In this document: positions 5,038 through 49,257 of the stretch, one piece after another
How positions within the stretch are numbered: the first letter of the stretch is position 1
Layout: each line of letters opens with the position of its first letter
Sequence record: DRR378314_1813
Strand: one strand, 5' to 3'
DNA: 64,000 bases
The notes under the pieces: generated by a model
Database searches by the model: none
Seen by the model: the letters and a program-made list of their open reading frames with translations, nothing else
Told to the model about the DNA's origin: nothing
Position numbers and translations under genes: made by a program

Positions 5038-5039
5038 CA

Positions 5040-21203: not shown

Positions 21204-22178
21204 TTAATTGTCATTGCTTTGAATCCGTTGCCCAGCCAGTGTGACGTTGGATGACACCAGGCCTGAGATCCGGATGGCCTCCTCTACCATCTCCTCACTG
21301 AGATTCTCAATACCGTAACGAGGGAGAAAGTCGGCCAACAGTGGGTTGGTGGTGATGGTGAACGACTCCATCCCCCAGCCCGTCAACTTGTACCGTTTTT
21401 GGTAGTCGCGAAACACACGCCAGAACAGCGGAGCGGCGCTGGCCAACCGGAAGCCCGAGTCTTTTTCCTCCAACAAAATGCCTTGAACGATACTACAATT
21501 GGATTCGAACGGGTGCGGCAATGTGTCGTATTGGGCGAGGCAGTCACGAACCTCATTGAGCGACCTCAAACCATGGAAGGTCAAACGCTCGCGAAAGAAG
21601 CGTCCATCAATGTGGGCATAGGCGCTTGAGGTCATCGTCTCGTCCAGCCGAGCGGTTTCCTGATCATTGCCAACGAATACCGTCAACAGCAACCTCTTTT
21701 TCACACGCAATTTATTGTAGAGGTCAGCGAACGCGTCAAATTGATCCGGAGTTAGGCGCTGGCACTCGTCGACCAATAACACGATTTGTGCAACGCCACC
21801 GAGATCGGCCGCATCCATTAACCAGTGGGCAAAACTGATCGACAACTGATAGGAACTTTGCCATTGGCTCGTTTTGATGCCTGCATCTGCACACAATTGC
21901 CAGTTTAGGGACTTGACGCTGGGTTTATCGAGCCGCTCCACGGATGTGACAAACACCGGTACCGGGCGTTGACGTCGATCACGGAGCTGACGGCCAAGGG
22001 TTTCGAGGGCAGTGGTTTTGCCGACACGCGCCGGCCCGGTGACGATCGCCCCCACTTTGCCGGTCCAAAGCCATTGCGTTAGTTTTTGGAAAAATTCCGC
22101 CGCTGGCGCCGTTCCTAAGGTCGGGTTAAACGGGGAAAGTAACGGCAAGTCGTAATTTTGAAAGGGCTGCCTGTCCAT
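21204..22178 (-). CDS. tnsC: TnsC/TniB-like AAA+ ATPase
   Basis: GPARVGKT Walker A, LLVDECQ Walker B; context. Confidence 0.8.
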   Translation of the reverse strand: MDRQPFQNYDLPLLSPFNPTLGTAPAAEFFQKLTQWLWTGKVGAIVTGPARVGKTTALETLGRQLRDRRQRPVPVFVTSVERLDKPSVKSLNWQLCADAGIKTSQWQSSYQLSISFAHWLMDAADLGGVAQIVLLVDECQRLTPDQFDAFADLYNKLRVKKRLLLTVFVGNDQETARLDETMTSSAYAHIDGRFFRERLTFHGLRSLNEVRDCLAQYDTLPHPFESNCSIVQGILLEEKDSGFRLASAAPLFWRVFRDYQKRYKLTGWGMESFTITTNPLLADFLPRYGIENLSEEMVEEAIRISGLVSSNVTLAGQRIQSNDN

Positions 22179-24077: not shown

Positions 24078-24748
24078 GACCGTCGGACCTTGGTTGAGTA
24101 ATCCAGGGGAGCATCGTCCAGGTTAGCCGTCAATTCACCCGCATGAAGCAAACGGAGCAGGGCAATTTCCTGTTCCAAAGTGCCGTCCCGGTCTCCGGGG
24201 TCCACGATTTCGCCGAAGGGCAACGGGGATTCGACTTGAAACCGCTCCAGCAGTTGGGATTCGGCAGCCAAGGTGTCCAGGTCGCGATTCAGGTAAAGCG
24301 CACGCACAATCTCCAGCCAGTTTTGCGCTTCCACGATTCGAGCAATTACCGATTCGTTGCTGATGACCTGAAATTGCAGCCCCTGGCTCGAAAAGAACGC
24401 TTCCAGCGGCCCCCATAACGCCGGATCAAGCTCCCCTCCAGGCTTGAGTTCGACTACGTGTCGTTGATTGCCGTCCACCACATAAAAATCCGGCTTATAT
24501 CGACGTTTGCCGACCTGCAGGGCAAAGGGCTGGGGGACGTAAGCACTAACCGTGGGATTGCCTTCAAGGAGCCCTGCGTACAAGTGCTCCGCATGGGAGT
24601 GGAATTCACTGACGTGTGGGTGTTTGAGCATCCGTTGCACGCGCACATCGGCGGCAATACGAAACGACCGGTCGGCACGGTGCTGGACCGGCACCAGCGC
24701 ATCGATCCGGACCCGTGGGGCATTGGGGTGGGAAAGTGCTCGCGACAT
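24074..24748 (-). CDS. tnsA: TnsA-like endonuclease
   Basis: SHAE..YVPQP..YKPDF..VELK; GAGGAGG RBS; ATGA overlap with tnsB. Confidence 0.8.
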   Translation of the reverse strand: MSRALSHPNAPRVRIDALVPVQHRADRSFRIAADVRVQRMLKHPHVSEFHSHAEHLYAGLLEGNPTVSAYVPQPFALQVGKRRYKPDFYVVDGNQRHVVELKPGGELDPALWGPLEAFFSSQGLQFQVISNESVIARIVEAQNWLEIVRALYLNRDLDTLAAESQLLERFQVESPLPFGEIVDPGDRDGTLEQEIALLRLLHAGELTANLDDAPLDYSTKVRRS

Positions 24749-25013
24749 GGGGCCTCCTCGACAAACCGGTCGATAACTGGGGGCCATGGCGCACGTCTTC
24801 ATCGGTGCGGAGGGTGTCCTTCTTATTGTGATCAATTATTAATCAATTTGCGTACTCTGTCCAGAGTCGGTGGTTTGACGATTGTGGGTAGTTCGTCAAC
24901 CGGCCCCCGTTTCTTGCGGTTTTCCCGCTGGTTGCCATACTTAGGGGACCGGAAGAGGGCGCTTGGCCAGGCCTTTAATTCCACCCGATAATTGACAGAA
25001 CCCCGGAGGGGAA

Positions 25014-25754
25014 ATGTCAAAATCCATCACCAGCGCGCGATCATTTCCCCGCCCGTCTCGAAACAAGCGTTCGCTCGGGTTTCAGGAACGTCCCCTGGTG
25101 TCGTTCCCGATCACCGAAGTGACCATCGATTGGGACCGGCTCATCGACAAGCGGCCGTTGCTGATGGAGACCCTCGACACCATGCCCAAGTACCTGCTCA
25201 AGCCCGAGGTACTGACGCTGTTGGAGGCCGAGACCCACCCCATGCACCGGCTGATCCTGGATCTGATGTGGTGCACCGGCGCCCGGGTCTCCGAGGTGCT
25301 GGCGATCACGCCGGCGAGTTTCCACGACGACGGCTACGACTTCGGGGTGGTGCTCAAGACACTCAAGCAAGGGGCAGGGCGGCCGAGCAAACGCAGCCTG
25401 CAACGCTCGCCCAAACGCTTCATCCCGATCCTCGACCGGGACTTCCAGACCCGGATCCAGAGCTACCTGTGGCTGGGGAAGTTTCGGAAGGACGAGCGGA
25501 TCTTTCCGATCACGCGCCAGGCGGTCAGCGCCAACATCGATCGGCTGATCGACCAGGTGGGGGGAGAGCCGCCATTCAAGATCGGCTGCCATACCTTTCG
25601 GCACAGCTTTGCGGTGCATCTGCTGCTGCACGGGCGGCCGCTGAAGTTTGTGAGCCAGCTCCTCGGTCATCGGAGCGTGGAATCGACGGAGGTGTATACG
25701 AATGTGCTAACGTTCGATGGGGCGCATTTTTTGGAAGGCGTGGATTTTCACTGA
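25014..25754 (+). CDS. Tyrosine recombinase / resolvase-like
   Basis: GARVSE, TLKQ, HTFRH, LGH, VY; visibly GC-richer than its flanks. Confidence 0.9.
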   Translation: MSKSITSARSFPRPSRNKRSLGFQERPLVSFPITEVTIDWDRLIDKRPLLMETLDTMPKYLLKPEVLTLLEAETHPMHRLILDLMWCTGARVSEVLAITPASFHDDGYDFGVVLKTLKQGAGRPSKRSLQRSPKRFIPILDRDFQTRIQSYLWLGKFRKDERIFPITRQAVSANIDRLIDQVGGEPPFKIGCHTFRHSFAVHLLLHGRPLKFVSQLLGHRSVESTEVYTNVLTFDGAHFLEGVDFH

Positions 25755-25923
25755 TCCTCTGAGCAAAAAGGAAGTTCGCGAACAAAAATTGAGGTCGCTA
25801 AGTCAACCGTGGTAGTTGGACGCTCTCTACTGACTAAGCTTTTATATCACCGTTTTATAATGCTGCAGGCATTGGGCGGGCAAAACGTACAAAGCTTCGG
25901 ACGAAACCAAGTTGGGAGTAGGA

Positions 25924-28900
25924 ATGAGTCTCTTGAGAACAGAGATCGAAACGGCACTCGATGAGCTCATCTCCCAAGAGGAAGGGATGCGTTTTCAAGG
26001 GCTCGCGGTTGTCATCGGTAAGTTACGCTGTCCCGAACTCGTTGCCCGCCAGCGCAAGAAAGATTTGGGGCTTGATGCCTACGCTCGGGCAAGCCTAACG
26101 CGGGAAAATTTGGGCAAGGGGCTCGCCGCGTCAATCACTCCAACCCTGAAAAAGATTTCTCACGATGTAGTGACCGCCAAAGCGAACTTTCCTGATCTGA
26201 GAACGCTTTTCTTCGTGACACCCGCGAAAGTTGGCAACGCCGAGCGCAAAAGATGGGAAGATGAAATAGAGCAAGAGCACGGTGTCGAGCTGCATGTCAT
26301 CGAGCGCGAGGAAATTATCACTCTCATGCTGATGCCAGGGAACGCCTCGCTCCTAGCAAGCTTCCTCTATCTTAAACGCGATGCCGAATCACCTGCTGAA
26401 GATATTGTTGTCAGAGCAAAGCGAGCGGCTGACGTAGTCGCGCGAAATTGGTTTTTCAAGACAAAAAACCAGCCCCTTATTAACCTTTTGACGGTCCGCT
26501 TAGATCACAACGGAGCAGAATCTGACGACTTGCTGTCACTAGAACAAATCGACCAAGCGTTGTCCCAAAGCCGTCGCATTGTTCTCGACGGGCCTGCCGG
26601 CCGGGGCAAAACTACAACATTGATACAACTAGCGTTAAAGCAGCGATTCGCCGGAATACCCTTTATGATTGAGCTTCCGGCCTGGACATCCTCACGCCGG
26701 GAAATTCTTGAATATATTGCAGGCATGCCTGCGTTTCAGGCGGAAGGTCTCACCTCCGCCGACTTGGCGCAAGTACAGGCAATGGAGCCTTTCTTGTTCC
26801 TACTAAACGGGTGGAACGAGATCGCAGAGTCAAACTCTGCACAGGCTGTAGAGGCGCTTCAATCGCTCGAACGAGATTTTCCTAGCGCTGGCATCATAGT
26901 CGCAACGCGCAAACACCACTTCACGCCCCCTTTGCCTGGCGCAGTACAGTTGAGATTGCTTCGCCTCCGACATTCCGAGAGGGTCAGTTATTTAGAGGCT
27001 CGGCTTGGGGAAAACGGCATAGGCCTTCGTGCCCGTATCGAATCTGAACTCGCTCTCGACGATCTAACCCTCACGCCATTCGTGCTGTCAGAAGTAGCCT
27101 CACTCTTTGAAGCCGGCGCGGACATCCCATCCACAAAAATTGGCATTCTTTCTGAAGTTCTTCGACTGCAAGAACAACGAGACGAGCATAGAAGCGCTCT
27201 GCTCACTGCACCTATCTTCGGGCGCCAAACGGATTTCCTAAAGACTCTAGCAACGGAGATGACTCGCCGGGGAGCAGTGTATCTCGCTGAGGCAGAGGCC
27301 CGCTCTTTCACGGCCGACGTAACAAAAGAGCTGGTAGCCTCCGGACAGCTCTCCCCCGCTGGATCACCCGAGGTACTCTCGGGGCTGACAGCACACCATG
27401 TACTCGAACGAATTGATTATCCCAAAACAGCGTTTCAGTTTGAGCATCAACAGGTGCAAGAATATTACACTGCGCTGGATCTTTTCGAGCGACTTCTCGA
27501 TATTGGTGAGGATCAAGAAGCGATCGACCGTTTCAAGGAGCAATACGTCAACGACCCAGTGTGGAGCGAACCGGTTCGAATGATCGCCGAGATGTGTGCA
27601 GAGTCTACTGGGGACGAGGCTCTGCATGAAAGAATCCTCTGTGCCGGCGTGAAGCTTGTGGAGATGACGTTGACCGTCGATATCGTGTTCGCTGGAGAAC
27701 TTGCTAGACTCTGTGGCACGGTTGTCTGGAAGAAGGTTCGTGATTCAGTAGGAGAGCGACTCCGAAACGTTTACACATCTCAAGAGGAAACTTTTCAACT
27801 CATTGCCCTAGCAGCAATGCTCGGCACCGGCTCCGACGATTTCAGAGACATCATTGTCCCAGTTCTTTCAGGATCAGACCAACAATCTCGCCTTAAGACC
27901 TATCGGCTCTTCCCATCTATCCAAACCTCATCGCTTGGACCGAACTGGCGCGATGAAGTGCGAGGCTGGAGCGAGGAGGCTAGATCCGATTTTATTGCCG
28001 AATTGCTTCACCATCGCGTTGATGTCGAGATTGCTACCTTTTCTGCTGAAGATGAAAGTAGGGCAGTGAAGAGTGCGGCGGTTTCTGGCCTCCTATGGAC
28101 AGGATCGGAGGAAGTCCTGGTTCAAGTTCTCGAGTCCTTAGATACGGAAACCTTCAAGGAGTTCGCCTGCCAATATTCCCAAGAATTTCCAGAGGCGCTG
28201 AGGCCCAAGCAAATCCTTGCGATCCGTAATCGTCTAGATACGACCAAAGGTCCTTCTACTCGCCTTAGAACTGCTCTGAAGTTGATAGATTTAGGAGAAG
28301 GGGGGCTAGCTGACATTATAAAAGATGCCATGACCGCGCTCTCTGATAGTGAAATGAGGCAAGTTGGTTCACCGACTTTTAAACAGGCTCTCGAGCACAT
28401 TTGGCGAACCGATCCAGAGTGGGCAAGCGATTGGGTTGCTACCAGGATTGCTGAAGGCTCTCTGTGGGAGCCCAAGTACTGGTTGCCTTTTGCTACATCT
28501 GTCTCCGATGACTTAGTCGAAAATCTCCTGAAACGCCTTGAAACCGGGGATCTACGGAAAGAGCGCATTGACGGCCTCATTTTTGCAGTCTCCCAACTAT
28601 CAAACGAAAAGATATCGGCCCGTGTCTTTGCGAAACTGCGTGAACTGAGTGGAAGAGTAGACGAAGATCCCCACCAAAGGCACGAATTGGAGCCCCAGAT
28701 AATTTGGCAGCTGAAAGCTTTGTTTCGCAGTTTTCCAGGCGACATCGCCGCAGCTGGAATTCTCTCCTCTGCGTCCTGTGGAGATCCTCTGGACCTCAAG
28801 GTTGCATCTCAAGTTTTAAGCAGAATAGCCTCGGATATGGAGCCGCTGAACATCTCCGATGATGATCTAAGATTGCGGCTCCGCGATTATCTGAGAAGCA

Positions 28901-30468
28901 ACGTAGATATCGTACTGGGGCAGGACGATTTTAGCGGCAAGGAAAAGGCCGACATGGCTTCTTCGATTGCACAAACAGGAGAACCCGCAGACATTGAGCT
29001 CCTGGTGAGGCTCATCCACGCCGATATAGAAAGAATTCGCCGGGGGCAGGCTGCCCGTGCTTCCGGAGATTCTGGTCCTCGCGTTAATGGCGCATGCATG
29101 AGCTATTCCCGGTGGCATATTGCCTCTGTCAGGTTACTCGACTCGGATAGCGCCAAGGAGGTGCTCATTGACCTACTCACCGAGCCGGAGTACCGCTCCG
29201 ACGCGGCGGCTGCAATGGCAGCCGATTTTCTACCAAAGTCGAATCACTCTTTCTCTCGCACCTTCCGATCCGACATAATGTGGGCTGCGCGCGAAGGCTG
29301 CGCTACGCTGCCGGACGACGACCAATGGCGCGCACGGTTTGCAGCCGCACTCAATTCCGAAATCAAGCGTCTGCGAGTACAAGCCCCTGAAGGGAAACCC
29401 TTCTCAGTGCTAGCAGAGCTGGCAAATGCGCTCGCTGCCGTTGATGGCTACGGTTCCGCGGCAGCGGTGCTCGACGTCATTGGAATGCCTCACGAATGGA
29501 ACCAATACACTTGTCTCGGCGCCGCCGAGCGTTTACTAATGGCTGGAGTCCTACTGCCGGTGGATACTCTATTGGCGCTGATGGATCCCATCCTCGAGCG
29601 AACTGAAAACAGGCTCCATCAATCAGACAGGGATTTACTACGACGCGCACTCGTGCTTTGTCCATTCGTAGATGACCCAAGGGCCGGAATCGCCAAGATG
29701 CGGGATGTGCTTGGCAAACGCCAATTCCGAGGATACGAGCTACGAGAGCATGTAGCGGCTCTTGGGGAGAGTCGATCGGAGGCCGCCGTAGAGCTCCTAC
29801 ACGAACTCGCAACTGATCCGCAGATGTTTGGGGAATGCGATTATTACCTCATCAATGCCCTCTCTACACTCAATACGCCGCTCTCGCGGGAACTGCTCCT
29901 CAGTTTTGTCGATCCGGATATTCCTGGCCTCTCAGTAACACGCCGTCTTCATCGCGAGGATGTTCTGGTGGAGCGGCTTGCCGAACTGGCTCAGAACGAT
30001 GCCGAAGTGGGCGAACGGCTGCGGGAGTTGTGCGAGCGTGATCTTCCGGAACTTGGTCGAGATATCCTTTCGAAAGTAATGGACTTGATTGGGACGCCAG
30101 AGGCCTTTGCCGCGAGCCTAAACCTGATTGACGACACCAAGCAATCAGCGATTCCGCAAGGTATTTGGAGACAACTCGACAATGCTTTTATGAATCGAAG
30201 CCCCCACGCCCAGAATTCCAGCGTCTTCGTGCTGACTCCAAGCTCGTCAAATCAATTGCGTATTAAGCTGTTCCAAATGGTGGTTAGGGATGAAAAACGA
30301 TCGAAGTCTGCCTTAATGCTTCTCGGTAAGATTGAGGAATTGCGCTTGGAGCAGGGTAGGCCGACAAGTGAACCGCGTCACCCCGATCTTACATCTGGCC
30401 AACCATGGCCGCCAATGGAGCCTTTCCTCCATCCTAATAAGAGCTCAACGCTCGCCGGGCCCATATAA
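25924..30468 (+). CDS. NACHT/STAND NTPase with N-terminal restriction-endonuclease-like domain and C-terminal helical repeats (candidate defence protein)
   Basis: GPAGRGKTT, LLNGWNE, ATR, TPF, FQFEHQQVQEY; N-terminal FQGL..DLGLDA. Confidence 0.8.
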   Translation: MSLLRTEIETALDELISQEEGMRFQGLAVVIGKLRCPELVARQRKKDLGLDAYARASLTRENLGKGLAASITPTLKKISHDVVTAKANFPDLRTLFFVTPAKVGNAERKRWEDEIEQEHGVELHVIEREEIITLMLMPGNASLLASFLYLKRDAESPAEDIVVRAKRAADVVARNWFFKTKNQPLINLLTVRLDHNGAESDDLLSLEQIDQALSQSRRIVLDGPAGRGKTTTLIQLALKQRFAGIPFMIELPAWTSSRREILEYIAGMPAFQAEGLTSADLAQVQAMEPFLFLLNGWNEIAESNSAQAVEALQSLERDFPSAGIIVATRKHHFTPPLPGAVQLRLLRLRHSERVSYLEARLGENGIGLRARIESELALDDLTLTPFVLSEVASLFEAGADIPSTKIGILSEVLRLQEQRDEHRSALLTAPIFGRQTDFLKTLATEMTRRGAVYLAEAEARSFTADVTKELVASGQLSPAGSPEVLSGLTAHHVLERIDYPKTAFQFEHQQVQEYYTALDLFERLLDIGEDQEAIDRFKEQYVNDPVWSEPVRMIAEMCAESTGDEALHERILCAGVKLVEMTLTVDIVFAGELARLCGTVVWKKVRDSVGERLRNVYTSQEETFQLIALAAMLGTGSDDFRDIIVPVLSGSDQQSRLKTYRLFPSIQTSSLGPNWRDEVRGWSEEARSDFIAELLHHRVDVEIATFSAEDESRAVKSAAVSGLLWTGSEEVLVQVLESLDTETFKEFACQYSQEFPEALRPKQILAIRNRLDTTKGPSTRLRTALKLIDLGEGGLADIIKDAMTALSDSEMRQVGSPTFKQALEHIWRTDPEWASDWVATRIAEGSLWEPKYWLPFATSVSDDLVENLLKRLETGDLRKERIDGLIFAVSQLSNEKISARVFAKLRELSGRVDEDPHQRHELEPQIIWQLKALFRSFPGDIAAAGILSSASCGDPLDLKVASQVLSRIASDMEPLNISDDDLRLRLRDYLRSNVDIVLGQDDFSGKEKADMASSIAQTGEPADIELLVRLIHADIERIRRGQAARASGDSGPRVNGACMSYSRWHIASVRLLDSDSAKEVLIDLLTEPEYRSDAAAAMAADFLPKSNHSFSRTFRSDIMWAAREGCATLPDDDQWRARFAAALNSEIKRLRVQAPEGKPFSVLAELANALAAVDGYGSAAAVLDVIGMPHEWNQYTCLGAAERLLMAGVLLPVDTLLALMDPILERTENRLHQSDRDLLRRALVLCPFVDDPRAGIAKMRDVLGKRQFRGYELREHVAALGESRSEAAVELLHELATDPQMFGECDYYLINALSTLNTPLSRELLLSFVDPDIPGLSVTRRLHREDVLVERLAELAQNDAEVGERLRELCERDLPELGRDILSKVMDLIGTPEAFAASLNLIDDTKQSAIPQGIWRQLDNAFMNRSPHAQNSSVFVLTPSSSNQLRIKLFQMVVRDEKRSKSALMLLGKIEELRLEQGRPTSEPRHPDLTSGQPWPPMEPFLHPNKSSTLAGPI

Positions 30469-31047: not shown

Positions 31048-32220
31048 ATGAGGCAACGGTTTACCATCCAAAAGCTACTGAACAACAGACTCGCAGATTC
31101 GGCATTCTTGGACTGCCTGTCCGTTGATGCGACGGAGAAGGAGCAGCTCTTACTGTACCGGGAGACAATAAGAAATCGGTTAAAATTAGGCTTTAGAGAT
31201 TTTGAGGAAAGAGCTAGTGAATTAGCCCCCACACTCAGGGAAATAAGTTCGCTAAAACCGAAGTTCTGGACTCAAGGCAGTGTTTCCTACCGCACTCTCA
31301 ATAATCCGGCCCATAATCCACCTCAACAAATAGACTTGGATGACGGGGTCTATTTCCCCATGGAATTAGTCAATGGGAAGCCGAAGGCTGCAAAGAAAGC
31401 ACTTTTGCAAAGTGTTTGGGTAATACTCGAAACGATCTGTGAGGAAAATGGTTGGGAACTCTCCGAGAAGCCCACTTGTGCGCGAATCAGGATCAACCAA
31501 CGAATGCACATCGATATTCCTGTATACGCTATTCCGCGTGAACGATATCTTGTCATGAAAGACGCACTGTCCGCCAATGCTCGATCAGGAGTGATGAGTG
31601 ATTCGGATACCACGTTACTCGATCCCAATGAAGTTTATTTGGCTATGTGGGACGACAAGGACGATTGGGTCCAGTCAGACCCCAAAGAGCTTGAAAAGTG
31701 GTTCAAGAAAGAGCTTTCAATACATGGAGAACGGTTGCGGCGGACTTGCCGTTATTTGAAAGCATGGCGTGACTACACATGGAAGAAAGGCGGTCCTTCA
31801 TCCATCGCACTCATGGCAGCCTCAGCTCAGGTTTTCGACGATCACATGCACGAAATCAATCAAGAATTCAACACGGACTGTCAGGCGCTACTTGAAGTAG
31901 CAAATCGATTGCCGGGTATATTTTCGCAGCAGCTCCTCAATCCAGTCGGTACTTCCGAATTGTTCCCAAATGGCTTGGATGAGGATCAAGTTGCAGATAT
32001 TCAGAATGGAGTTGCCAAATTTTCACTTCAAATTCAGACCGCACTTTGCGCTTCAAAGGACAATCTAGAGGTTGTTGCCAATCTTGAGCAGTGTTTTGGG
32101 TCTCGCATTCCATCACGACCCGATTGGGTTTTGCTTATGTCTGTCGCAGATTTAGTGAAAAGCACTCCCACCGAACCGCAGACCAAACCTAAACCCTCTG
32201 AGTCACACCGCTCTGCATGA
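31048..32220 (+). CDS. CBASS CD-NTase, DncV-like
   Basis: FWTQGS..TLN..DLDDGVY, HIDIP, RYLKAWRD. Confidence 0.92.
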   Translation: MRQRFTIQKLLNNRLADSAFLDCLSVDATEKEQLLLYRETIRNRLKLGFRDFEERASELAPTLREISSLKPKFWTQGSVSYRTLNNPAHNPPQQIDLDDGVYFPMELVNGKPKAAKKALLQSVWVILETICEENGWELSEKPTCARIRINQRMHIDIPVYAIPRERYLVMKDALSANARSGVMSDSDTTLLDPNEVYLAMWDDKDDWVQSDPKELEKWFKKELSIHGERLRRTCRYLKAWRDYTWKKGGPSSIALMAASAQVFDDHMHEINQEFNTDCQALLEVANRLPGIFSQQLLNPVGTSELFPNGLDEDQVADIQNGVAKFSLQIQTALCASKDNLEVVANLEQCFGSRIPSRPDWVLLMSVADLVKSTPTEPQTKPKPSESHRSA

Positions 32221-33977
32221 ATGGAGTAGAGTTGAAAGAGGGGGCGATCGCTTCAATAACTCGCGTGTTTATCAGCCGAGGATTGAGGTTGATTCCTGGG
32301 GCTGAGCTCGCCTTTAGCTGGAAAGTAACGATTGAAGGCGTAGTCTTCAAACTCCGTGTCTGTGAAATAGATCCTTCATTCAGAATGCTTCCACTCGTTC
32401 AACTTCAGGAAATACCCGACGAACTTCCTTTTGTACTGCCCCATGTCATTGGAAAGGATCGATTTCTCTGCTACTTGGATACGACAGGGAAATACTTCGA
32501 TCCGTTCGAACCAGAAATCAGTGGACGTATGATCCTCGATGCGATTGAGCAAACACTCCTGATTCTTCTGGACGAACCGACTAGTAGTCGAGATTTTGGG
32601 ATTGAGTTCGGTACATATTGGGAACCGAAATGCGCTGGCTATTTAATGACAACAGAGACAATCGCAGAGGCTTCGCTGCTACGTACTTGCGGAGTGGATG
32701 AGCGTGAGAGGCTGGAGGCTGTGATTTATTCGGGAAAGGACGCCCTGGACCAATGGTGCAAGAATCGTAGTCTTCAGGAATGCATAGCGTCCTTTCCCGC
32801 GTTGGTCATTCAACTGAAGGAATCTACTCGTATCCCTCACGATAGAGACTGGCCACCGACATTATGGAGCGATTTCTTGAGTTGGTTGTACAAGTATCAC
32901 CCTGGTGCGGAACTTAACCTGCTTGAAAGACTCATCGGTACTATTAATCGGTCTCTGACGATGTTTATCGTTCTGATTCATCCTGCTAGTGGACCGTTTG
33001 GCATCGCTGTTTCCTTTAAGCCTACGGTGAAAAAAGTCACTTCGCGGTTTCGGAAGGGAAAACCGAAAGGGAAGAACAATCTAGGTCTTGGACAGCTACG
33101 CCAAGTTCTAAAAAGTCCTATGCATGTGCACAGTTTCGAACGATGGGGTATCGAAAACGTAACCGACCTTTTCCTTACAAATCGAAACCTAGTGACGCCT
33201 TCACTTGAGAATAAAAAAATCGCTGTAATGGGCTGTGGCACGGTTGGCGCCCATGTTGCAAATCTACTGACAAAAGTTGGGGCCGGGGCTGGAAAGGAAG
33301 GGGAATTAGCCCTTTTTGATGGTGATATGCTTAGGCCATCAAATATCGGGCGACACTTCCTCGGTGTCGAATATCTTGGTGAAAACAAGGCCGCAGGTGT
33401 CGCCGATAAGCTTAAAAAGCTTTGCTTGCACCCGCGGACTGTTCCGGCACATGGATATCTAGAGCCCGATAAGTTCGCTACGGTATTTGACTATAGCTTG
33501 ATCATTGATGCGACGGGGGATGAGCAGATATCTACGTTGTTATCGTTTGCAGCCCAACGAGCGAGGCAAACAGGCAGAAGTGTCGCCATATTACATGTGT
33601 GGATAGACGCTAACGGATTGGCTACTAGAGCGCTGTTAGATGATGGCAACGGGGGATGCTATCGATGCTTAAAAATCTACGAAACCTCGGGTGGACAACA
33701 CCAATTGATGGAGAGGTTTGGGCTTTTTCGTAACGATGATCAGGTACCGGAAGTTGCCAGGATCCATTATCAATGCGGAGAAAGCTATGTTCCTTTTTCG
33801 GAAGGTGTTTCCGTTATAGCAGCTGGGATGGGACAGCAAATGGCCACAGAGTATCTCTCTGGGGAGACTGGCCCCAGATTTAGGCACATTAGCTTACATT
33901 CAGAGGTCAAACATACCAAGTCACAGAATCTCTCGAGGTATTCAAATTGCCCATGCTGCAGCCCAAGAAGGAATTAG
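32217..33977 (+). CDS. cap2: CBASS Cap2 (E2-E1/ThiF fusion)
   Basis: LPHV..LCY E2 part; GCGTVG, SNIGRH, DATG, CYRC, CPCC. Confidence 0.9.
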   Translation: MNGVELKEGAIASITRVFISRGLRLIPGAELAFSWKVTIEGVVFKLRVCEIDPSFRMLPLVQLQEIPDELPFVLPHVIGKDRFLCYLDTTGKYFDPFEPEISGRMILDAIEQTLLILLDEPTSSRDFGIEFGTYWEPKCAGYLMTTETIAEASLLRTCGVDERERLEAVIYSGKDALDQWCKNRSLQECIASFPALVIQLKESTRIPHDRDWPPTLWSDFLSWLYKYHPGAELNLLERLIGTINRSLTMFIVLIHPASGPFGIAVSFKPTVKKVTSRFRKGKPKGKNNLGLGQLRQVLKSPMHVHSFERWGIENVTDLFLTNRNLVTPSLENKKIAVMGCGTVGAHVANLLTKVGAGAGKEGELALFDGDMLRPSNIGRHFLGVEYLGENKAAGVADKLKKLCLHPRTVPAHGYLEPDKFATVFDYSLIIDATGDEQISTLLSFAAQRARQTGRSVAILHVWIDANGLATRALLDDGNGGCYRCLKIYETSGGQHQLMERFGLFRNDDQVPEVARIHYQCGESYVPFSEGVSVIAAGMGQQMATEYLSGETGPRFRHISLHSEVKHTKSQNLSRYSNCPCCSPRRN

Positions 33978-34471
33978 ACTTTTTCACAATGCTTCCTTCC
34001 GGGGGATTTCTACTGGTTCCAAATAGACTGATGAGTATCTTCGACAGCTATCGACAGTTGAACTCAATGGACCTAGAGGCAGGGGGTGTACTGATTGGTT
34101 CCTGGCGGGGAGCCTGGGCATCATCAAGACAAGGCCATATCGAACTAACACAATGTTCCCAGCCATGTATGAATGACCTAAGGTCGCGAGATGGTTTCGA
34201 AAGGCGATGCAAACACCATCTCAATACTGCAGAGATGGCGTGGCACCAGTCTAACGGACTTGAGTCATACCTTGGCGAATGGCATACCCATCCAGAAGGC
34301 AACCCCATACCATCTTCAGAAGATATGCGGCAGTGGAGAAAGAACCTCCGAGGAAAAGAGAGTGTGGTGATTATTGTTGGCATTTACGCACTATGGGTCG
34401 GGTTCTGGGATGGCAAAAATGCTATTTCCCTGCCAAAACTCAAAGAAGACTCCCACAATATTAGTAATTAA
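33947..34471 (+). CDS. cap3: CBASS Cap3 JAB peptidase
   Basis: EAGGVL..YLGEWHTHPE..PSSED. Confidence 0.9.
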   Translation: MPMLQPKKELDFFTMLPSGGFLLVPNRLMSIFDSYRQLNSMDLEAGGVLIGSWRGAWASSRQGHIELTQCSQPCMNDLRSRDGFERRCKHHLNTAEMAWHQSNGLESYLGEWHTHPEGNPIPSSEDMRQWRKNLRGKESVVIIVGIYALWVGFWDGKNAISLPKLKEDSHNISN

Positions 34472-34510
34472 ATTCGTAAGTCTATTACCCATCATCTCCG
34501 GAATTGATTT

Positions 34511-35179
34511 ATGTGGAAGGTGCTACCGAAATCCATCGTGTTCAAGATTATCGTCGCAATTGTTGCCACTATCGCCACATCGATATTCCTCTGGAGTACC
34601 GAAGGTTGGTTTGGACTTGTTTCCTTTTTCACTGACGGCGGTCTTATAGACCTTCTAAAAGTATTAACTCCAATATTTTTGACTTTCCTTATTACGACCT
34701 GGTTTTTAGGGTCTGTGGCGTGGAAAGCTGCTTGGAAACTCCCTTGGTTAGGCCAGGCTTTGAACCAGAAAGTATGCCCAAATCTCAATGGTGTTTGGAC
34801 AGGGTGCACGGAATCGAGCCACAGAGATGAAGTCGGCAACAAAGTAAAAACTCCGGTTGAGATGATAATCAAGGCAACGTTTTTCGGATTCGATATGAGT
34901 TTCAGATCGATTGATGACTATCACCAGAGCAAGGTCATACAAAGCGAAATATACAAAGATCCAAGAGATGGGGAATTCTTAGTTTCATATATATTTGAAG
35001 CGGAAGTCCAAAGCCCGGTAAATACTGACGATTCGAAGTTTGATGGAGCAGCAAAACTCAAAGTTAAATTTAGCAAAGAAAATGAAATTGAACTGTCTGG
35101 GATCTACTGGACCAACCGCGCCTGGCAGAGGGGAATGCAAACAGCAGGGACTATACGTCTTTCACGGTGCAAAGACTGA
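34511..35179 (+). CDS. SMODS-associated 2TM beta-rich effector (Cap15-like)
   Basis: Two TM segments, then PNLNGVWTG and a beta-rich domain ending G.YWTNR. Confidence 0.8.
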   Translation: MWKVLPKSIVFKIIVAIVATIATSIFLWSTEGWFGLVSFFTDGGLIDLLKVLTPIFLTFLITTWFLGSVAWKAAWKLPWLGQALNQKVCPNLNGVWTGCTESSHRDEVGNKVKTPVEMIIKATFFGFDMSFRSIDDYHQSKVIQSEIYKDPRDGEFLVSYIFEAEVQSPVNTDDSKFDGAAKLKVKFSKENEIELSGIYWTNRAWQRGMQTAGTIRLSRCKD

Positions 35180-35245
35180 TTTGTGGTAGCTTGCGACTAA
35201 GTAACATACCTAAATCTATTATCACTATTCATCCTTGTAGGTACG

Positions 35246-35986
35246 TCATAATTCTGAGGCAGCATTGTCCATCCACTGCTTATCAATTTTGCTGACTTTG
35301 ACTGTTGAAGTTTCGGAACCAAACAACCTAAGTTCACCTTCTTGTATTATTCCTGCCAATTCCATACGTGATATTGGGTCATGAACCCATGTAAATACAG
35401 GGCAACCGCTGATTCCACCTAAAGCGGTAAGTTCATCCCACCGTCGATCAGATTCAATTTCTTCCTCCAGTTCCTTTTCCATCAAACATGAAAAAGTTGA
35501 ATGATCCACGCTCGTGACCAGGCAGCCACCATGTGAAAATGTATCGAATTGGTAGCCATGTTCAGTTTTTGACCTAAAGCAACCAGGATAACCGCCGAAA
35601 TTTACGTATTGATCGGGCTTGATGATTACTTCAGATTGAGGGACTTGAATAAAGTTTGGATGCGTTCCAGATATATGGAAATTGTCAGCTATATTTTGAT
35701 CGACTTCGAAACAACAGAGATCATTCGCCGCGTCAGTAAATTTTTTGGTCTCTATAAGACCAAACCGACTGTTACCAATCTGACAGTAGTTTTGATCACT
35801 AATTTGCTTTTCAATTTCCTCAATGACGTGCTGATTCGTTATACAAAAATACCGGTCGTGGTTCTTCACAAGGGTTACAGTGGCGTTGCCGGGGAATAAG
35901 ATCCCTTTTTCTGATAGGCAGCAGATTGGCAGGGTATACCGCAATGGCACCCTGTTAAGTTCTTTTTTGAGTTCTAATTCATCCAT
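35246..35986 (-). CDS. Trypsin-like serine protease
   Basis: TNQHV (His), DLC (Asp), GYP, GGISGCPVF (Ser). Confidence 0.75.
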   Translation of the reverse strand: MDELELKKELNRVPLRYTLPICCLSEKGILFPGNATVTLVKNHDRYFCITNQHVIEEIEKQISDQNYCQIGNSRFGLIETKKFTDAANDLCCFEVDQNIADNFHISGTHPNFIQVPQSEVIIKPDQYVNFGGYPGCFRSKTEHGYQFDTFSHGGCLVTSVDHSTFSCLMEKELEEEIESDRRWDELTALGGISGCPVFTWVHDPISRMELAGIIQEGELRLFGSETSTVKVSKIDKQWMDNAASEL

Positions 35987-36045
35987 GACACCAAATCTCG
36001 AGTTAAACTAGTTTCCTGAATGTCGTCGGTATTTCCAACAATCGT

Positions 36046-36843
36046 CTATCCAATATAGTTAAAGCCAGCATCTTGCAAAGCTTCTTTTAAGGAGTCTTCC
36101 GGCGGCTCCTCATAGATCAGCGTTGTGGAAGGGGAGACGTGACCAGCAATTTTCTGGGCGACTTTTACCGATTTTTTTTGGTGGTGAATAATATTGGTCA
36201 TTAGCGTTCGACGACCACTATGTGAACTTGCACGCTCAATCCCAGCCCAATTTCTCTGCATCAACGCCAGATGTTCTTGTAACGTGTTGGGGGAGTAAGA
36301 GGCACCTTTTTGAGTCAGGAAGAGGGGATCGGTCCTCTTCACCGACCGATTTCTGTTCAGGCGGACTGAGAGATAACTCTCTAGAGCCGTTCTTAAAGCA
36401 CAGTCGTTCATCGGTAGGTCTCTAGACTTTCCGCGGTGCTTTTTTATCTCAGGATAAAAATCCCCTGGGTAGATCTCGGCGCCAGCCTTGGCCATAGTCT
36501 CGATTCGTCGTACAAGCTGGTCGAATTCATGAACACTGAAACTAATACGACGCCGTTGGTACGTTGATTTAGATCGCTTCAACGCATCGGCACCTTTTGT
36601 GTAAGCCGCCGGCAACGCGAGAATTTCCTTCAACTTAAACGAACGCTGACCGGAAGTTTCGGGGCCGAGTTCGGCGACGTCTTTGATCTGAAGAAGCGCA
36701 ATTTCTTGGACTCGCAGTCCGAGCTTGAAGCTGATCTGAACCAGTGCCGTGTTCTTTTCCGGGTAGCGGTGCTCCTGGATTACGCTCAAGAGGTGGGCGA
36801 ACTGATTGGGCGTGAGTACCCGGGCCTGGCCGGTTTTGCTCAT
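36046..36843 (-). CDS. Tyrosine recombinase, catalytic domain only, copy 2
   Basis: 265 aa; about 32 differences from copy 1 (~88% identity); all catalytic residues intact. Confidence 0.9.
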   Translation of the reverse strand: MSKTGQARVLTPNQFAHLLSVIQEHRYPEKNTALVQISFKLGLRVQEIALLQIKDVAELGPETSGQRSFKLKEILALPAAYTKGADALKRSKSTYQRRRISFSVHEFDQLVRRIETMAKAGAEIYPGDFYPEIKKHRGKSRDLPMNDCALRTALESYLSVRLNRNRSVKRTDPLFLTQKGASYSPNTLQEHLALMQRNWAGIERASSHSGRRTLMTNIIHHQKKSVKVAQKIAGHVSPSTTLIYEEPPEDSLKEALQDAGFNYIG

Positions 36844-36927
36844 AGGAAAAGCTCCTGGAAAGCCGCTTGAGCGCATGGATAGGGTGGAAATTAAAATCCG
36901 TAATAATGTTATTTCAACGCATATCGT

Positions 36928-36955
36928 ACTGCGCATAATGTATATTATGTTAAAT
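36928..36955 (+). other. dif: Chromosomal dif site (XerC/XerD)
   Basis: ACTGCGCATAA-TGTATA-TTATGTTAAAT, 26/28 identical to E. coli dif; the KOPS seen converge on it. Confidence 0.93.
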
Positions 36956-45058: not shown

Positions 45059-46750
45059 CTATTCCAGTGGCCGGGGCTTGGCAATTCCATAACCTTGGGC
45101 GTAATCGAGCCCCAACTCGACAAGACGGGCTTTCACCTCGTCATTCTCAACAAACTCTGCGACCGTTTTAAGACCGGCTGAGTGGGCGATACGATTGCAG
45201 GCGTCGACAATGGACAGATCAATCGGGTCGTCCAGCAGGTTACGGACGAAGCCACCATCGATCTTCAGGTAGTCAACGGGCAGTGCTTTCAGATAGGAGA
45301 ACGAGCTCATGCCGGCGCCGAAATCATCCAGCGCGAATTTGAACCCTCTCCTCTTGGCGGAACTGATGAAACGTTGGGTAACGTTCAGGTTGGCGATGGC
45401 GGATGTTTCAGTGATCTCAAAGCAGATACGTCCGGGTTTGAGTTTGTAACGCTCAGCCAGTTGACTGATGTAGAGGAACAACTCCGGTTCGTTGAAGGAA
45501 CTGCCTGACAGGTTGATAAAGAACGTTCCTGTGTCCTCTCGTCCCAAGCCTGTGCGATCAAGGTACTGGAACGCCATCTGGATGACTTTTCGATCGATTT
45601 TTGTCATCAGATTAAAGCGTTCTGCCGCGGGGATAAAGGCGCCCGGGGGCACGATGTCGTCCCCTTCCATCAAGCGAACCAGAAATTCCGTTCGATAACC
45701 ATCAGCGGCGTGGGGCTGGAGTGCAACCATCTCTTGCTGCCAGAGGCAGAAGCTGTCTTTCTGCAGTGCCTGCTGGATTCGGCTGGTCCAGTTCATGTCC
45801 CGTTGGCGCTGCTGCATATCAACGTCATTGGTTTCGTACAGCTGAACGTTGTTGCGGCCCCGATCCTTGGCGGCGTAGCACGCCAGGTCGGCATGGCTGA
45901 GAAGCTCACCGGCACTGTGGTAGCTTTTGTTGATCAAAACCATGCCAATGCTCAGTGACACTGAAAATGGCTTGTTTTTCCACACGAACCGAAATTCGTT
46001 GACCTCTTCGCACAGCTTCTCAGCGACTTTCTGCGCGTGGAGCACGTCGCAACCTCGCAGTAGCACCCCGAACTCATCGCCGCCGAGTCGTGCCAGCGTA
46101 TCGTCAGACCGAACCTGATGTGACAGCAAACCGGCCACCTGCTTCAACAAGTGGTCACCGGCCACATGGCCACAGGTATCGTTTATGATCTTGAACTGGT
46201 CGAGGTCGAGATACAGCAATACATGCTGGCTTCCGTTCTTGTGGGTATCTTCAAGCGCCTGGACCAACCGCTGTTCAAATTCCCGGCGATTCACAAGGTC
46301 CGTCAGGCTGTCGTGGTAGGCCATGTGTGCAAGGGCGCTTTCAGCCACGCGCTTGGCCTGGCGCATGAAACCTTCACGCACTTCCCGATCAATGGCTGGG
46401 ATCAGTCGGGACAGGTTGTCCTTCATGATGTAATCCTGCGCACCCGCTTTCATGGCGTTAACCGCAACGCCTTCACCGATGGTGCCGGACACAATGATCA
46501 CTGGCAGGTCTTTGCAATATTTTTTGGTCAGCTCCAACACTCGAAATGACGAAAATCCGGGCATGTTGTGATCGGTAATAACGATATCCCACTTGCCCCG
46601 GCGAAGGGCGTGGGACAGGCGGTCCTCGCTATCGACCAACTCATGATAGGGGGCGATGCCACCTTTACGCATCTCGCGCAGAAGCAGCAGGGCATCGTCT
46701 TCCGAATCTTCGACGATCAACATCCGTAGAGGGCTGGCTGTGTCTGTCAA
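45059..46750 (-). CDS. REC-GGDEF-EAL response regulator
   Basis: Receiver domain, RLGGDEF, EFLVR, DDFGAG. Confidence 0.92.
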   Translation of the reverse strand: MTDTASPLRMLIVEDSEDDALLLLREMRKGGIAPYHELVDSEDRLSHALRRGKWDIVITDHNMPGFSSFRVLELTKKYCKDLPVIIVSGTIGEGVAVNAMKAGAQDYIMKDNLSRLIPAIDREVREGFMRQAKRVAESALAHMAYHDSLTDLVNRREFEQRLVQALEDTHKNGSQHVLLYLDLDQFKIINDTCGHVAGDHLLKQVAGLLSHQVRSDDTLARLGGDEFGVLLRGCDVLHAQKVAEKLCEEVNEFRFVWKNKPFSVSLSIGMVLINKSYHSAGELLSHADLACYAAKDRGRNNVQLYETNDVDMQQRQRDMNWTSRIQQALQKDSFCLWQQEMVALQPHAADGYRTEFLVRLMEGDDIVPPGAFIPAAERFNLMTKIDRKVIQMAFQYLDRTGLGREDTGTFFINLSGSSFNEPELFLYISQLAERYKLKPGRICFEITETSAIANLNVTQRFISSAKRRGFKFALDDFGAGMSSFSYLKALPVDYLKIDGGFVRNLLDDPIDLSIVDACNRIAHSAGLKTVAEFVENDEVKARLVELGLDYAQGYGIAKPRPLE

Positions 46751-46762
46751 TGACCTTACCTT

Positions 46763-47218
46763 TTAAAGCGAGCGAACGGCGCCTGCCTTGGGCACCTTGT
46801 TTACAAAGAGCCAGTATTGAGCAAGCAACTTCATTTGTTCCGTAAACTCCCGATAATTGATCGACTTGGTGATGAAACTGTTGGCCCCAAGACGATACGC
46901 GTCCAACAGGTCTGCCGGCTCATCAGAGGACGTTACCATCACGACCGGCAGCCAGTTGGTCAGTGGCGAGGAACGAATGCTTTTGAGCACTTCCAGGCCA
47001 CTCACCTTGGGGAGCTTTACATCAAGTAGAACGATACCGAGCGAATCCAGGTTTTTACATGGGTGTTTGCCATCACTGCCAAACAAGAAATCAAGGGCCT
47101 CTTGCCCGTCTTCCAATACGATGACCGGGCTATTCTCGCTCGCACTCTTAAGAGCGCGCACCGCAAGAACCTGATCATCCGGGTTATCTTCAACCACAAG
47201 GATTGAATGACCTTCCAT
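46763..47218 (-). CDS. Single-domain response regulator
   Basis: VEDNPDD, LLDVKLP, GANSFITK. Confidence 0.9.
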   Translation of the reverse strand: MEGHSILVVEDNPDDQVLAVRALKSASENSPVIVLEDGQEALDFLFGSDGKHPCKNLDSLGIVLLDVKLPKVSGLEVLKSIRSSPLTNWLPVVMVTSSDEPADLLDAYRLGANSFITKSINYREFTEQMKLLAQYWLFVNKVPKAGAVRSL

Positions 47219-47272
47219 GTTTTTATTTGCCCTTTCAATGAATTGCAATAACAGGTGGAACTTGACTACAGT

Positions 47273-48727
47273 CTAGCCCTGATCTTTGGAAACAGGCAAC
47301 TTCACAATAAAACTCGCGCCCTCGCCCAATTCGGACGTCGCGGAAATATCGCCGTGATGACGGCGAATCACCCGGTATACCGTGGCCAGGCCTATCCCCG
47401 TGCCACCAAATTCCGACGGTGTGTGAAGCCGATTGAACGCCACGAACAATTTGTCGATGTATCTCATATCGAAGCCTACGCCGTTATCGCGGACCTCAAT
47501 GGCCATCCAGCGCCCTTCCCTTTTCGCCAACACTTCAACGACCCGCTTCTCTTCCTTGGCACTGTACTTCCAAGCGTTGGCGAGTAGGTTCTGAAAGGCA
47601 ACACGCAGCATGCGGCTGTCTCCCACAACCTGCATACCCGGCTGTATATGGATTTCGGTGGGCACTTCGTCGCTGATGTCCTGCAGTTCTTCCGCCACTT
47701 CCTGCACCAACTGACTCAAATCGACGATCTGATTCTCCATGGACTGTCGGCTGACGCGGGAAAGAATCAACAGCCCATCGATCAATCCCGCCATACGCAC
47801 ACTCGCCGCCCGAATACGCTTCAGGTAATCCTTGCCCGTTTCATTGAGTTGGTCACCGCAGTCTTCTTCCAGGGCCTGTCCAAACCCTTCAACGGCCCTC
47901 AACGGCTGCCTGAGGTCATGGGACACCGAATAACTGAACGCTTCCAGTTCGCGGTTCGCCATGCTCAGTTCGGAGGTTCTGGCCTCAACGGTTCTTTCCA
48001 GGCTATCGCGGCTCTCCAGGATACGGCGGTTCTGCTGTTGGATCGTGCTGATCATCTCATTGAAGGTGTTGCCAAGAATCCCGAGTTCATCGGTGCCTGT
48101 GACCGGGGCGCGAATGGAGTAATCGTGATCCTGTGCGATTCGCTCGGCCGTCTCCGACAGCTTGAGCATGGGCTCTGAAACGATTCTCTGCAGCCTCAGC
48201 GCGAGGAAGACCAGGGCGATAAGAATCACCGCCCCAATACCGGACGCAACAAACACAAAGGTTCGGATATGGCCTCGAAGGACTTCCAGATGCGAGGTCA
48301 GGAACAGTTGCCCAACCACTTCGTTATCCAGGGTAACTGGCATCAGTAACCGATAGACGTCGTCGACAAAACCGACTTCGAGCGCCGGATCGATCGCGGG
48401 ACACTGCCGTTTGTTCATGTTTGCCAGGGCGGTCATTACATTCCCTTGGGAGTCATAAACACACGCCTGCCGAATGGTATTAATCCGCTTGAGGCTGGAG
48501 ATGATACTGCTAAGTTGTTCGTTGTCCTCGAACACCAACGCCGCGGCGGACTGCTCAGCCAGAATGCCGGCAATGACATGAAGCTCGGATTCGAGTTGCT
48601 TTCGGTAATTCTGGTTTTCAACGAAGATCAGGCTCGCGCAGACCAGGGCAATCCCCAGAGCACTGGTGAATAATGTGAGGAACAACAGTTTGGTTTTAAG
48701 CCGCCAATATCGCCAACGCCAAATCAT
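47273..48727 (-). CDS. Sensor histidine kinase (periplasmic sensor, HAMP)
   Basis: SHDLRQP, NAWKY, DNGVG, GTGIGL. Confidence 0.92.
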   Translation of the reverse strand: MIWRWRYWRLKTKLLFLTLFTSALGIALVCASLIFVENQNYRKQLESELHVIAGILAEQSAAALVFEDNEQLSSIISSLKRINTIRQACVYDSQGNVMTALANMNKRQCPAIDPALEVGFVDDVYRLLMPVTLDNEVVGQLFLTSHLEVLRGHIRTFVFVASGIGAVILIALVFLALRLQRIVSEPMLKLSETAERIAQDHDYSIRAPVTGTDELGILGNTFNEMISTIQQQNRRILESRDSLERTVEARTSELSMANRELEAFSYSVSHDLRQPLRAVEGFGQALEEDCGDQLNETGKDYLKRIRAASVRMAGLIDGLLILSRVSRQSMENQIVDLSQLVQEVAEELQDISDEVPTEIHIQPGMQVVGDSRMLRVAFQNLLANAWKYSAKEEKRVVEVLAKREGRWMAIEVRDNGVGFDMRYIDKLFVAFNRLHTPSEFGGTGIGLATVYRVIRRHHGDISATSELGEGASFIVKLPVSKDQG

Positions 48728-49257
48728 CGTACGACCCTCACCGCCAGCTCCAGAAGCCTGGAGTTAATGGTCAGTCCTGCTTCTGTCGCGGCTTCCAGGC
48801 TGATTTCGAAACGGATCACATTGCCCTGTTTCACATAACCGACGATTCCACCTTTACGAACAAAGTCCGGTAAATCGCTGACCGTCAGCACACCTTTCTG
48901 GCTTTGCGCCATGGCAAGCAGAGTTTCGACATCTCTGGACTGCGATTGCCCTATGTACAGGACGTCGCAACCAACGAGGCCAGCCTTGTCTTCCGGGTAT
49001 CGGAGCTGAAGTTCCCTGCCCTGGGATTTACGTCCGCGCAAGGGGTCCAGGAGGTCGCCAAAAGGATCATCGCCATAGACGCACACCTCGAGGGGCGCAG
49101 CCGCCGTTTCGCCATTAGACCAGGTGACAAAGCGTGTGAAGTTGTAGAGGAACGCAGCTTTGACTTCGTATTCCGAGCGGATGGAAGCATGCGCTGACGC
49201 CAGACTGAAACACAGGCTGAGAACCAGGGAAATAAGGTATTTCAGGTGATCCCTCAC
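48724..49257 (-). CDS. YfiR-family periplasmic regulator
   Basis: EYEVKAAFLYNFTRFVTW..SRLLELA. Confidence 0.9.
   Translation of the reverse strand: MRDHLKYLISLVLSLCFSLASAHASIRSEYEVKAAFLYNFTRFVTWSNGETAAAPLEVCVYGDDPFGDLLDPLRGRKSQGRELQLRYPEDKAGLVGCDVLYIGQSQSRDVETLLAMAQSQKGVLTVSDLPDFVRKGGIVGYVKQGNVIRFEISLEAATEAGLTINSRLLELAVRVVR

Follow-up and report, generated by a model that had tools for sequence, protein, structure and literature searches.

A defence island at dif and its probable origin as a Tn7-like transposon with two tyrosine recombinases

Why should a defence island stop at dif, with the gene for a minimal tyrosine recombinase starting within 100 nt of the site? This question is raised by sequence record DRR378314_1813, of which one stretch of 64,000 nucleotides (the window, to which all coordinates refer unless a locus is named) was analysed. 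By database search, the source organism belongs to Marinobacter. In the window, dif (36928-36955, + strand) separates defence, transposition and recombinase genes on its left from metabolic and signalling genes on its right. The recombinase gene beside it, recB (36046-36843, - strand), is an intact open reading frame (ORF) of 265 aa with its ATG (36843) 84 nt from dif base 36928, as an initial annotation of the sequence had described. We find that the island from 10208 to dif is probably a single Tn7-like transposon of a dif-homing family. The position of recB is best explained by deletion of the dif-proximal transposon end, with the recombinase as a conserved transposon module and not an integrase acting on dif.

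dif and the ends of a probable Tn7-like element

The site at 36928-36955 reads ACTGCGCATAATGTATATTATGTTAAAT, with a XerC-type arm, a 6-nt centre and a XerD-type arm; the arms are named after what we take to be E. coli dif, the XerC arm on the left and the XerD arm on the right. Its 26-nt core, TGCGCATAATGTATATTATGTTAAAT, has a single copy in the window (36930-36955, + strand), a perfect match where none is expected (100 shuffles). Of 5426 complete E. coli genomes, 5420 have the same core at a single chromosomal location, presumably E. coli dif. Cumulative GC skew reaches its maximum in the window at 34-38 kb, in agreement with dif and not with a terminus elsewhere. An exhaustive scan for the FtsK-orienting polar sequence (KOPS) GGGNAGGG gave six copies in the window, three on the + strand left of dif and three on the - strand right of it. 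The polarity around dif is perfect, though the total is not above chance (8.3 expected); the copy at 22198 was absent from the list compiled by eye in the initial annotation. The main points of that annotation, namely a real dif at the terminus, KOPS converging on it, a switch in gene content and a defence-rich island anchored on the XerC-arm side, are all upheld.

The resident element (10208-36927, ~26.7 kb) has, read leftwards from dif, the gene order of a complete 18.9-kb element that is legible in Marinobacter nauticus G001. There the order is dif, a compact transposon end, a site S, the recombinase gene rec, cargo, a second recombinase gene (rec3), TnsA, TnsB, TnsC, a TniQ-like gene, cargo and a spaced transposon end. 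The layout from dif is thus the dif-proximal end (missing in the window), S, rec, cargo, rec3 with its site S3, the TnsA/TnsB/TnsC/TniQ-like genes, cargo and the distal end; element sizes are 7-27 kb. In 18 loci, rec3 was found downstream of rec in the opposite orientation, followed by TnsA in nine loci and TnsB in nine. The small non-autonomous elements of loci L001 and L015 (loci are cited by our own labels) have rec inside both transposon ends.

The transposition operon in the window (19585-24835, - strand) comprises TnsA-like (24074-24835), TnsB-like (22179-24077), TnsC-like AAA+ (21204-22178) and TniQ-like (19585-21156) genes, all on the - strand. The TnsA-like protein matches NCBIfam TnsA_like (E 1.5e-5) and Pfam Tn7_TnsA-like_N (E 1.3e-3), and its E..PD..ExK motif (E91, P-D116, E129-x-K131) is invariant in 9/9 homologues. 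For the TnsC-like protein, matches to AAA_22 (E 3.3e-13) and to a PHROG DNA transposition protein (E 8e-4) were obtained. The TnsB-like protein matches a PHROG transposase (E 3.8e-12), and its Atlas neighbours (scores 0.94-0.98) carry Mu-transpos_C, HTH_TnsB or rve. The Atlas neighbours of the TniQ-like protein, which has conserved Cys/His clusters, include 'TniQ protein family', with PF06527 on 14% of one cluster. Neither the TnsB-like nor the TniQ-like protein has a Pfam or NCBIfam match. A TnsA-type endonuclease and an AAA+ regulator, both marks of Tn7-like elements, are thus represented.

Two types of transposon end were recognised, compact (~22/20-nt spacing) and spaced (55/60 nt), each with three ~16-nt direct repeats. 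The two are mutually inverted and start with TG. The compact array starts TGGACGACCAC and faces dif, in most loci sitting between dif and S, and the spaced end closes the element distally. Asymmetric multi-repeat ends with TG...CA termini are a further mark of Tn7-like elements. In 19 loci we detected 20 compact ends beside dif, all of them facing it: 14 lie 35-39 nt from the core and the rest 43-58 nt from it, 17 are on the XerC side and three on the XerD side, and in L015 a single dif is flanked by two of them, one per arm. Such orientation-specific insertion at a fixed distance from an attachment site is likewise a Tn7-like trait. Among 30 Marinobacter dif loci picked by dif alone as an unbiased sample, 14 have a compact end on the XerC side, 36-55 nt from dif. 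A 5-bp target duplication, AGAAT, borders the element in L015. The clustering of 14 of the 20 ends at 35-39 nt, the Tns genes, the inverted spaced end and the 5-bp duplication together make the Tn7-like transposition system the most likely anchoring agent.

Integron-like cassette borders or iterons were considered for the 160-nt repeat units and dropped in view of the inverted compact/spaced pairs and the 5-bp duplication. Other junctions were observed as well. In L001 a degenerate compact end beyond the left end (16480-16640) is fused directly to codon ~7 of another rec copy, and the two ends are flanked by a 13-nt repeat, TTTTGGTTCGGTT, and not by a 5-bp duplication. In L011 (6316-6352) a left end and the compact end of the next element are 4 bp apart (CCGT); ends abutted in this way might be a transposase substrate.

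The left part of the window holds a series of such ends. A left-type (spaced, three-repeat) end at 10208-10367 (+ strand) closes the resident element. A second left-type end, of an older truncated element (3675-3834, + strand), is followed by leftover cargo (3835-10207) that includes an orphan patatin-like CBASS-type effector (8731-9762; CBASS, cyclic-oligonucleotide-based antiphage signalling system). A third, of a still older truncated element (1886-2045, + strand), abuts the upstream region of recA, 30 nt from the ATG. The recA gene (1061-1858, - strand) is a displaced older copy of rec with neither an S site nor dif beside it; it is 88% identical to recB and 98% identical to rec of L008, from another species. 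Junctions like that between recA and the end were also found in L003 and L070. The three left-end remnants and recA fit repeated insertion at dif, with older copies pushed outward.

The initial annotation had viewed the locus in the frame of integrative mobile elements exploiting Xer (IMEX). Members such as the CTX and TLC phages and the gonococcal island enter by XerCD crossover inside dif and have two flanking dif-like sites. Residence at dif is common to IMEX and the elements described here, and dif-like sites altered in the centre or the XerD arm do lie beside element copies in L006 (1063-1088) and L013 (52-77); both points suit an island inserted by host XerCD, with rec incidental. Two flanking dif-like sites are not seen here, however. 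The window has no further dif-like site at up to 3 mismatches to the 26-nt core, and 126 of 151 Marinobacter genomes have exactly one 25-nt dif core (up to 1 mismatch), with two copies in none of the 151. The element also encodes three recombinases and a transposase set, and an offset of 35-39 nt from an intact dif is unlike the product of an Xer crossover. We regard an IMEX origin as extremely improbable and have given up that frame. A dif-like variant site was also noted ~190 nt upstream of rec in L064, and M. flavimaris has a true dif (L063) plus the variant site of L006; these variants may have arisen by Xer crossover with other elements.

The polarity of KOPS was also counted across 33 dif-linked loci, which are related and hence not independent. 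On the core side, GGGNAGGG points to dif 39:1; on the element side the ratio is 39:5 (32:5 without shared contexts). A fixed orientation of the element relative to dif would let this polarity persist on either arm. We also noted that at least nine Marinobacter loci have a dif-pointing GGGNAGGG ~80-150 nt past the rec stop codon, amid surrounding sequences that are unlike one another. In the window, the KOPS at 911-918 follows recA and a 7-of-8 version of GGGNAGGG follows recB.

The recombinase rec, its site S and the altered site in the window

The match of the recB protein to PF00589 (E 2.6e-15) is confined to the C-terminal half of that profile, and its match to the XerC family to positions 168-285 of 295 (52.7 bits against a cut-off of 335). 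It consists of the catalytic domain, without an N-terminal core-binding domain, and falls below the Xer family cut-off. The catalytic residues R44, H208, R211, H235 and Y244 are invariant among 16 homologues, and the Xer-type catalytic set is complete. When the rec profile was compared with solved structures, XerA was the sole match, over its C-terminal part; an AlphaFold2 model built from the 16 sequences was poor (mean predicted local distance difference test score 58.5). The activities of the proteins discussed here, and the function of rec, are predicted from sequence.

Scanning one genome per species gave 80 rec loci, 71 of them with a full-length start. Distance to dif was measured in the 64 of these 71 having at least 1.5 kb of upstream DNA, with up to 4 mismatches of 26 allowed in dif. 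In 32 of the 64, dif lies within 1.5 kb upstream of the rec start, against a chance of ~1.5 kb in 4 Mb per locus; the XerC arm faces rec in 25 of these loci and the XerD arm in seven. The distances are not random, and the recombinase family is strongly associated with dif. The suggestion that the recombinase targets dif is not supported; rec has a 29-bp site of its own, S, distinct from dif, in 64 of the 71 loci. The 84-nt spacing itself is limited to six genomes and is not family-wide. In a quick tree, dif-adjacent copies are scattered through the main clade (seven families). No rec homologue was found in phage records. Copies also occur on plasmids, and a plasmid rec of Halioglobus (L081) has no dif within 3 kb.

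We also considered that rec and S could be a third Xer system of the host, one with vertical inheritance next to dif on which transposons hitch-hiked at a later time. The 65-89% identity of rec across several gammaproteobacterial families is consistent with this, as are the layout of a gene beside its site, which resembles XerS/difSL and XerH/difH, and the inner TTAT common to the S half-sites and the dif arms. Yet the distribution is patchy, with rec within 1.5 kb of dif in 11 of the 30 Marinobacter dif loci sampled by dif alone. The two window copies, at 88% identity, are of different lineages, one of them 98% identical to the copy of another species. Moreover, there are plasmid copies, rec lies inside both ends of the L001 and L015 elements, and the hosts already have a canonical XerD (371-380 bits, above the cut-off) and a second Xer elsewhere (3/3 genomes). 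A third host system is, in our judgement, very improbable.

The site S is a palindrome, AATCCGT-N15-ACGGATT, located 15-59 nt before the rec ATG. Its arms are nearly invariant and its most variable positions are 14-16; it is built like a tyrosine-recombinase core site. That S is a degenerate dif was rejected, given that the arms differ and the common part is only the inner TTAT. In the window the site is present in an altered form, S* (36895-36923, - strand), 6 nt from the 26-nt dif core. The rec-proximal arm of S*, ACGGATT, is canonical and the dif-side arm reads TATGCGT in place of AATCCGT. We also noted that TAT (ATA on the other side) is kept 5-7 nt outside both dif arms in most loci, extending the palindrome past 28 nt, and that the S* arm begins exactly at this conserved TAT.

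The window, L004, L013, L073 (XerD side), L075/L110 and L103 all have S* at 6 nt from dif without an intervening transposon end. In L019, L101 and L102, S* beside dif is immediately followed by a new compact end, at 37-43 nt. The common state is a transposon end plus 0.4-1.2 kb separating dif from S, and the stretch from the compact end to S holds no conserved gene, only varied small ORFs or none. In the window, a search for inverted copies of the end repeats revealed no compact end. A 68-kb metagenome contig (run X6) matches window positions 34000-36919 with 29 differences (99% identical). This contig has 671 nt before dif, compared with 8 nt in the window, and its core side is far more diverged from the window than its element side. 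We therefore read the window as a derived, end-deleted state: its geometry appears to reflect a recent ~0.66-kb deletion of the dif-proximal end region, and the same element is at dif in a second host as well. The deletion is bounded by the outer edge of S and by a point ~10 nt from dif. With the dif-proximal end deleted, the window copy would no longer be able to transpose.

Alternatively, rec could have integrated a circular element at a pseudo-site flanking dif, namely S*, with the Tn7-like genes as passengers. The exact 6-nt distance from S to dif in six genomes, on either arm and with no end between, would suit such an event, and rec has complete catalytic residues and a site built like a core site. 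No second S or hybrid site was found in the window at up to 8 mismatches, however, including at the far end of the island. In addition, the usual state, in which dif and S are set apart by a transposon end and 0.4-1.2 kb, the 671 nt in the 99%-identical copy, which marks S* as derived, and the overlay of S* by a new compact end in L019, L101 and L102 all argue against integration by rec, which we consider unlikely.

rec3, possible module exchange and the weighing of the transposon reading

The second recombinase gene, rec3 (25014-25754, + strand), is divergent from tnsA and encodes a 246-aa Xer-like tyrosine recombinase (PF00589, E 2.4e-17). The match to XerD covers positions 98-274 of 290, with 80.7 bits against a cut-off of 329.6. 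Residues R91, H193, R196 and H219 show no variation, and Y228 almost none. Between rec3 and tnsA lies S3 (24875-24899), an inverted repeat TTGACG-N13-CGTCAA, which outside Marinobacter takes the form TGCACCA-N15-TGGTGCA. Six Marinobacter elements align almost perfectly towards rec3 and show no relatedness towards tnsA, with the break inside the S3 spacer; across the break, rec3 is 91-98% identical, the adjacent TnsA 35-54% and TnsB 33-35%. The break looks like the footprint of a site-specific exchange of modules. Because of the analogy with S3 and the variable centre of S, rec/S might act alike at the other border of the rec-cargo-rec3 segment, a proposal to which we give roughly even chances. 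The two recombinase/site pairs would then serve module exchange and deletion between elements.

S and S3 might instead be autoregulatory operators, of rec and of rec3/tnsA respectively, with the recombinases doing another job such as cointegrate resolution only. The position of S, ending 15-59 nt before the ATG, and of S3 in a divergent promoter region would suit operators, and tyrosine resolvases are tied to replicative transposition in one Tn7-like clade (Benler et al. 2021, PMC8649781). Against this stand the homology break inside the S3 spacer in six elements and the three central positions of S, the most variable ones, as in crossover regions. The TnsA-like nuclease motif, intact in 9/9 homologues, also favours cut-and-paste transposition over cointegrates; TnsA looks active, and cointegrate resolution would therefore not be required. 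Overall, a purely regulatory role of the sites seems quite unlikely.

Returning to the Tn7-like transposon, its anatomy, its offsets from dif, the conserved architecture and the module breakpoints are direct observations, and a mechanism can be proposed around them. Insertion, possible on either arm, would leave the compact end turned towards dif at ~36 nt from the 28-nt site, and successive insertions would push older copies outward, creating a defence hotspot. rec/S would be a conserved transposon part just inside the dif-proximal end, and rec3/S3 a second one beside tnsA. Both recombinases would recombine element with element, in exchange, deletion or resolution of modules, and would not integrate at dif. 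In the window, deletion of the dif-proximal end and ~0.66 kb would have brought S to 6 nt from the core and rec to 84 nt from dif.

Candidates for the reader of dif are the TniQ-like protein, rec3 (conserved, with an Xer-like catalytic domain) and the host XerCD-dif complex. TniQ-like proteins of elements at dif are only 24-33% identical, and a predicted complex of the TniQ-like protein with rec3 scored 0.00, which is uninformative either way. A wider reading combines three proposals: that a Tn7-like family homes to dif at ~36 nt off either arm, with dif read by rec3/rec or by XerCD-dif; that dif-pointing KOPS are kept so that FtsK-driven dimer resolution still works; and that the two private recombinase/site pairs exchange defence cargo and transposition modules between elements. 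Taken jointly, these proposals are possible but doubtful.

Several observations weigh against the island being a Tn7-like transposon that homes to dif. Half of the measured rec loci (32/64) have no dif within 1.5 kb upstream, and in 31 dif-less loci examined with a looser dif model none was found within 3 kb; basal rec copies in Halieaceae and Paraglaciecola are without dif in the quick tree. A 5-bp duplication was seen in one of four complete elements and was absent from L001, L070 and G001. Both TnsA-like family matches are below curated cut-offs, the TnsB and TniQ assignments rest on PHROG/Atlas likeness, and comparison of the TnsB-, TnsC- and TniQ-like sequences and the TnsA-like profile with solved structures gave no match. 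The tns genes lie mid-element and not beside the compact end as in Tn7. TnsB is 33-35% identical between elements, yet the end repeats are near-identical, which is odd if TnsB reads these repeats. The deletion in the window has its endpoint at the outer edge of S and not at its centre, so that it is no textbook crossover between two S sites. Finally, the window copy is without a dif-proximal end, and the mode of its own arrival is judged from its relatives.

Cargo, neighbouring genes and known systems

The cargo of the resident element bears out the view of a defence-rich hotspot beside dif. The first cargo gene after recB (35246-35986, - strand) encodes 246 aa with no family match. It is followed by a type II CBASS (31048-35179, + strand) with genes for a cyclase (31048-32220), an E1/E2 protein (32217-33977), a JAB protein (33947-34471) and a 2TM/Cap15-type effector (34511-35179), and by a 1518-aa protein with a NACHT C-terminal alpha/beta 2 domain (25912-30468, + strand). 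Distal cargo (10448-19049) comprises a gene for a 919-aa protein (10448-13207), PD-Lambda-1 (T5orf172/DUF4041) as two tandem genes (13351-14622 and 14634-15992), and a 459-aa ORF paired with a HipA-like kinase gene (16293-19049). This kinase is full-length, with its 459-aa partner upstream; a HipA N-terminal fragment at 3287-3667 stops 8 nt short of the left-type end at 3675. Genes on the right of dif encode DUF3703 and DUF1223 proteins, a solute-binding protein, a TonB receptor and metabolic or signalling functions. We also noted, in the core DNA at 45059-49257, a gene cluster for a CHASE8 histidine kinase, a YfiR/HmsC-like protein and two response regulators, one of them of the GGDEF-EAL type.

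Almost all circular bacterial chromosomes have a single dif, and the polarity of an insertion there matters for FtsK and XerCD. If the reading proposed here is true, homing to dif at a fixed offset and orientation would explain defence islands at the termini of marine Gammaproteobacteria, and dif would join the few known Tn7-type attachment sites. A protein-guided insertion system for a target widely conserved in bacteria would be a further consequence. Together with the S3 break, the two recombinases of catalytic domain only, each with a private palindrome, make a testable case for natural cassette exchange between transposons, and the KOPS polarity within elements (39:5) suggests that the chromosome-segregation machinery has shaped mobile DNA. 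In the full-text literature, with subscription-only papers and supplements outside the scope of the search, no description of a heteromeric Tn7-like family homing to dif was found.

Known systems resemble parts of this picture. Tn5053 and Tn402, the 'res site hunters', are TniA/B/Q transposons that insert beside the site of a site-specific recombinase. They are without TnsA, have a serine resolvase and target plasmid res sites; the elements here are alike in inserting beside a recombinase site and differ in having a TnsA-like protein. In XerS/difSL and XerH/difH, the recombinase gene and the palindrome-like core site of its product are immediate neighbours. XerS and XerH have a core-binding domain and are their host's only dimer-resolution system, whereas the hosts here keep XerC/D and dif.

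The clade of Tn7-like elements described in PMC8649781 almost always has tyrosine resolvases, and the main text of that report mentions neither dif nor Xer. Closer in target choice are insertion sequences (IS) of the IS1202 family (ISAjo2 group), described as 'dif site hunters' that insert 5 bp from the XerC arm in Acinetobacter (PMC10132070). As characterised there, this family has in common with the elements here TG(T) ends with extra internal binding repeats and orientation-specific insertion, in the case of IS1202 next to dif or pdif. Its TnsB-related transposase and 5-bp duplication have a probable counterpart here in the TnsB-like protein and in the duplication of the L015 element. The IS are 1.5 kb long with a single gene, whereas the elements here are 19-27 kb long, lie ~36 nt from dif on either arm, and carry TnsA/TnsC/TniQ-like genes, two recombinases and defence cargo.

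Tn6022, a Tn7-like element that targets comM, encodes a full-length XerC-like protein that acts with host XerD on a half-dif site, and this Xer-type recombinase and private site have been proposed and shown to recombine elements and create diversity (PMC11014353). By that account, the elements here are like Tn6022 in being Tn7-like with their own Xer-type recombinase and private site, and unlike it in targeting dif itself, in having recombinases without the N-terminal domain and in having palindromic sites unlike dif. In a report on TnsF and Tsy, TnsF is described as a protein of ~500 aa with zinc fingers and an inactivated recombinase fold, associated with TniQ as a target selector in a Tn7-like element and targeting comM (PMC10293859). 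TnsF offers a precedent for a recombinase fold that reads a target; rec and rec3 differ from it in their size of 246-265 aa and in their intact catalytic residues.

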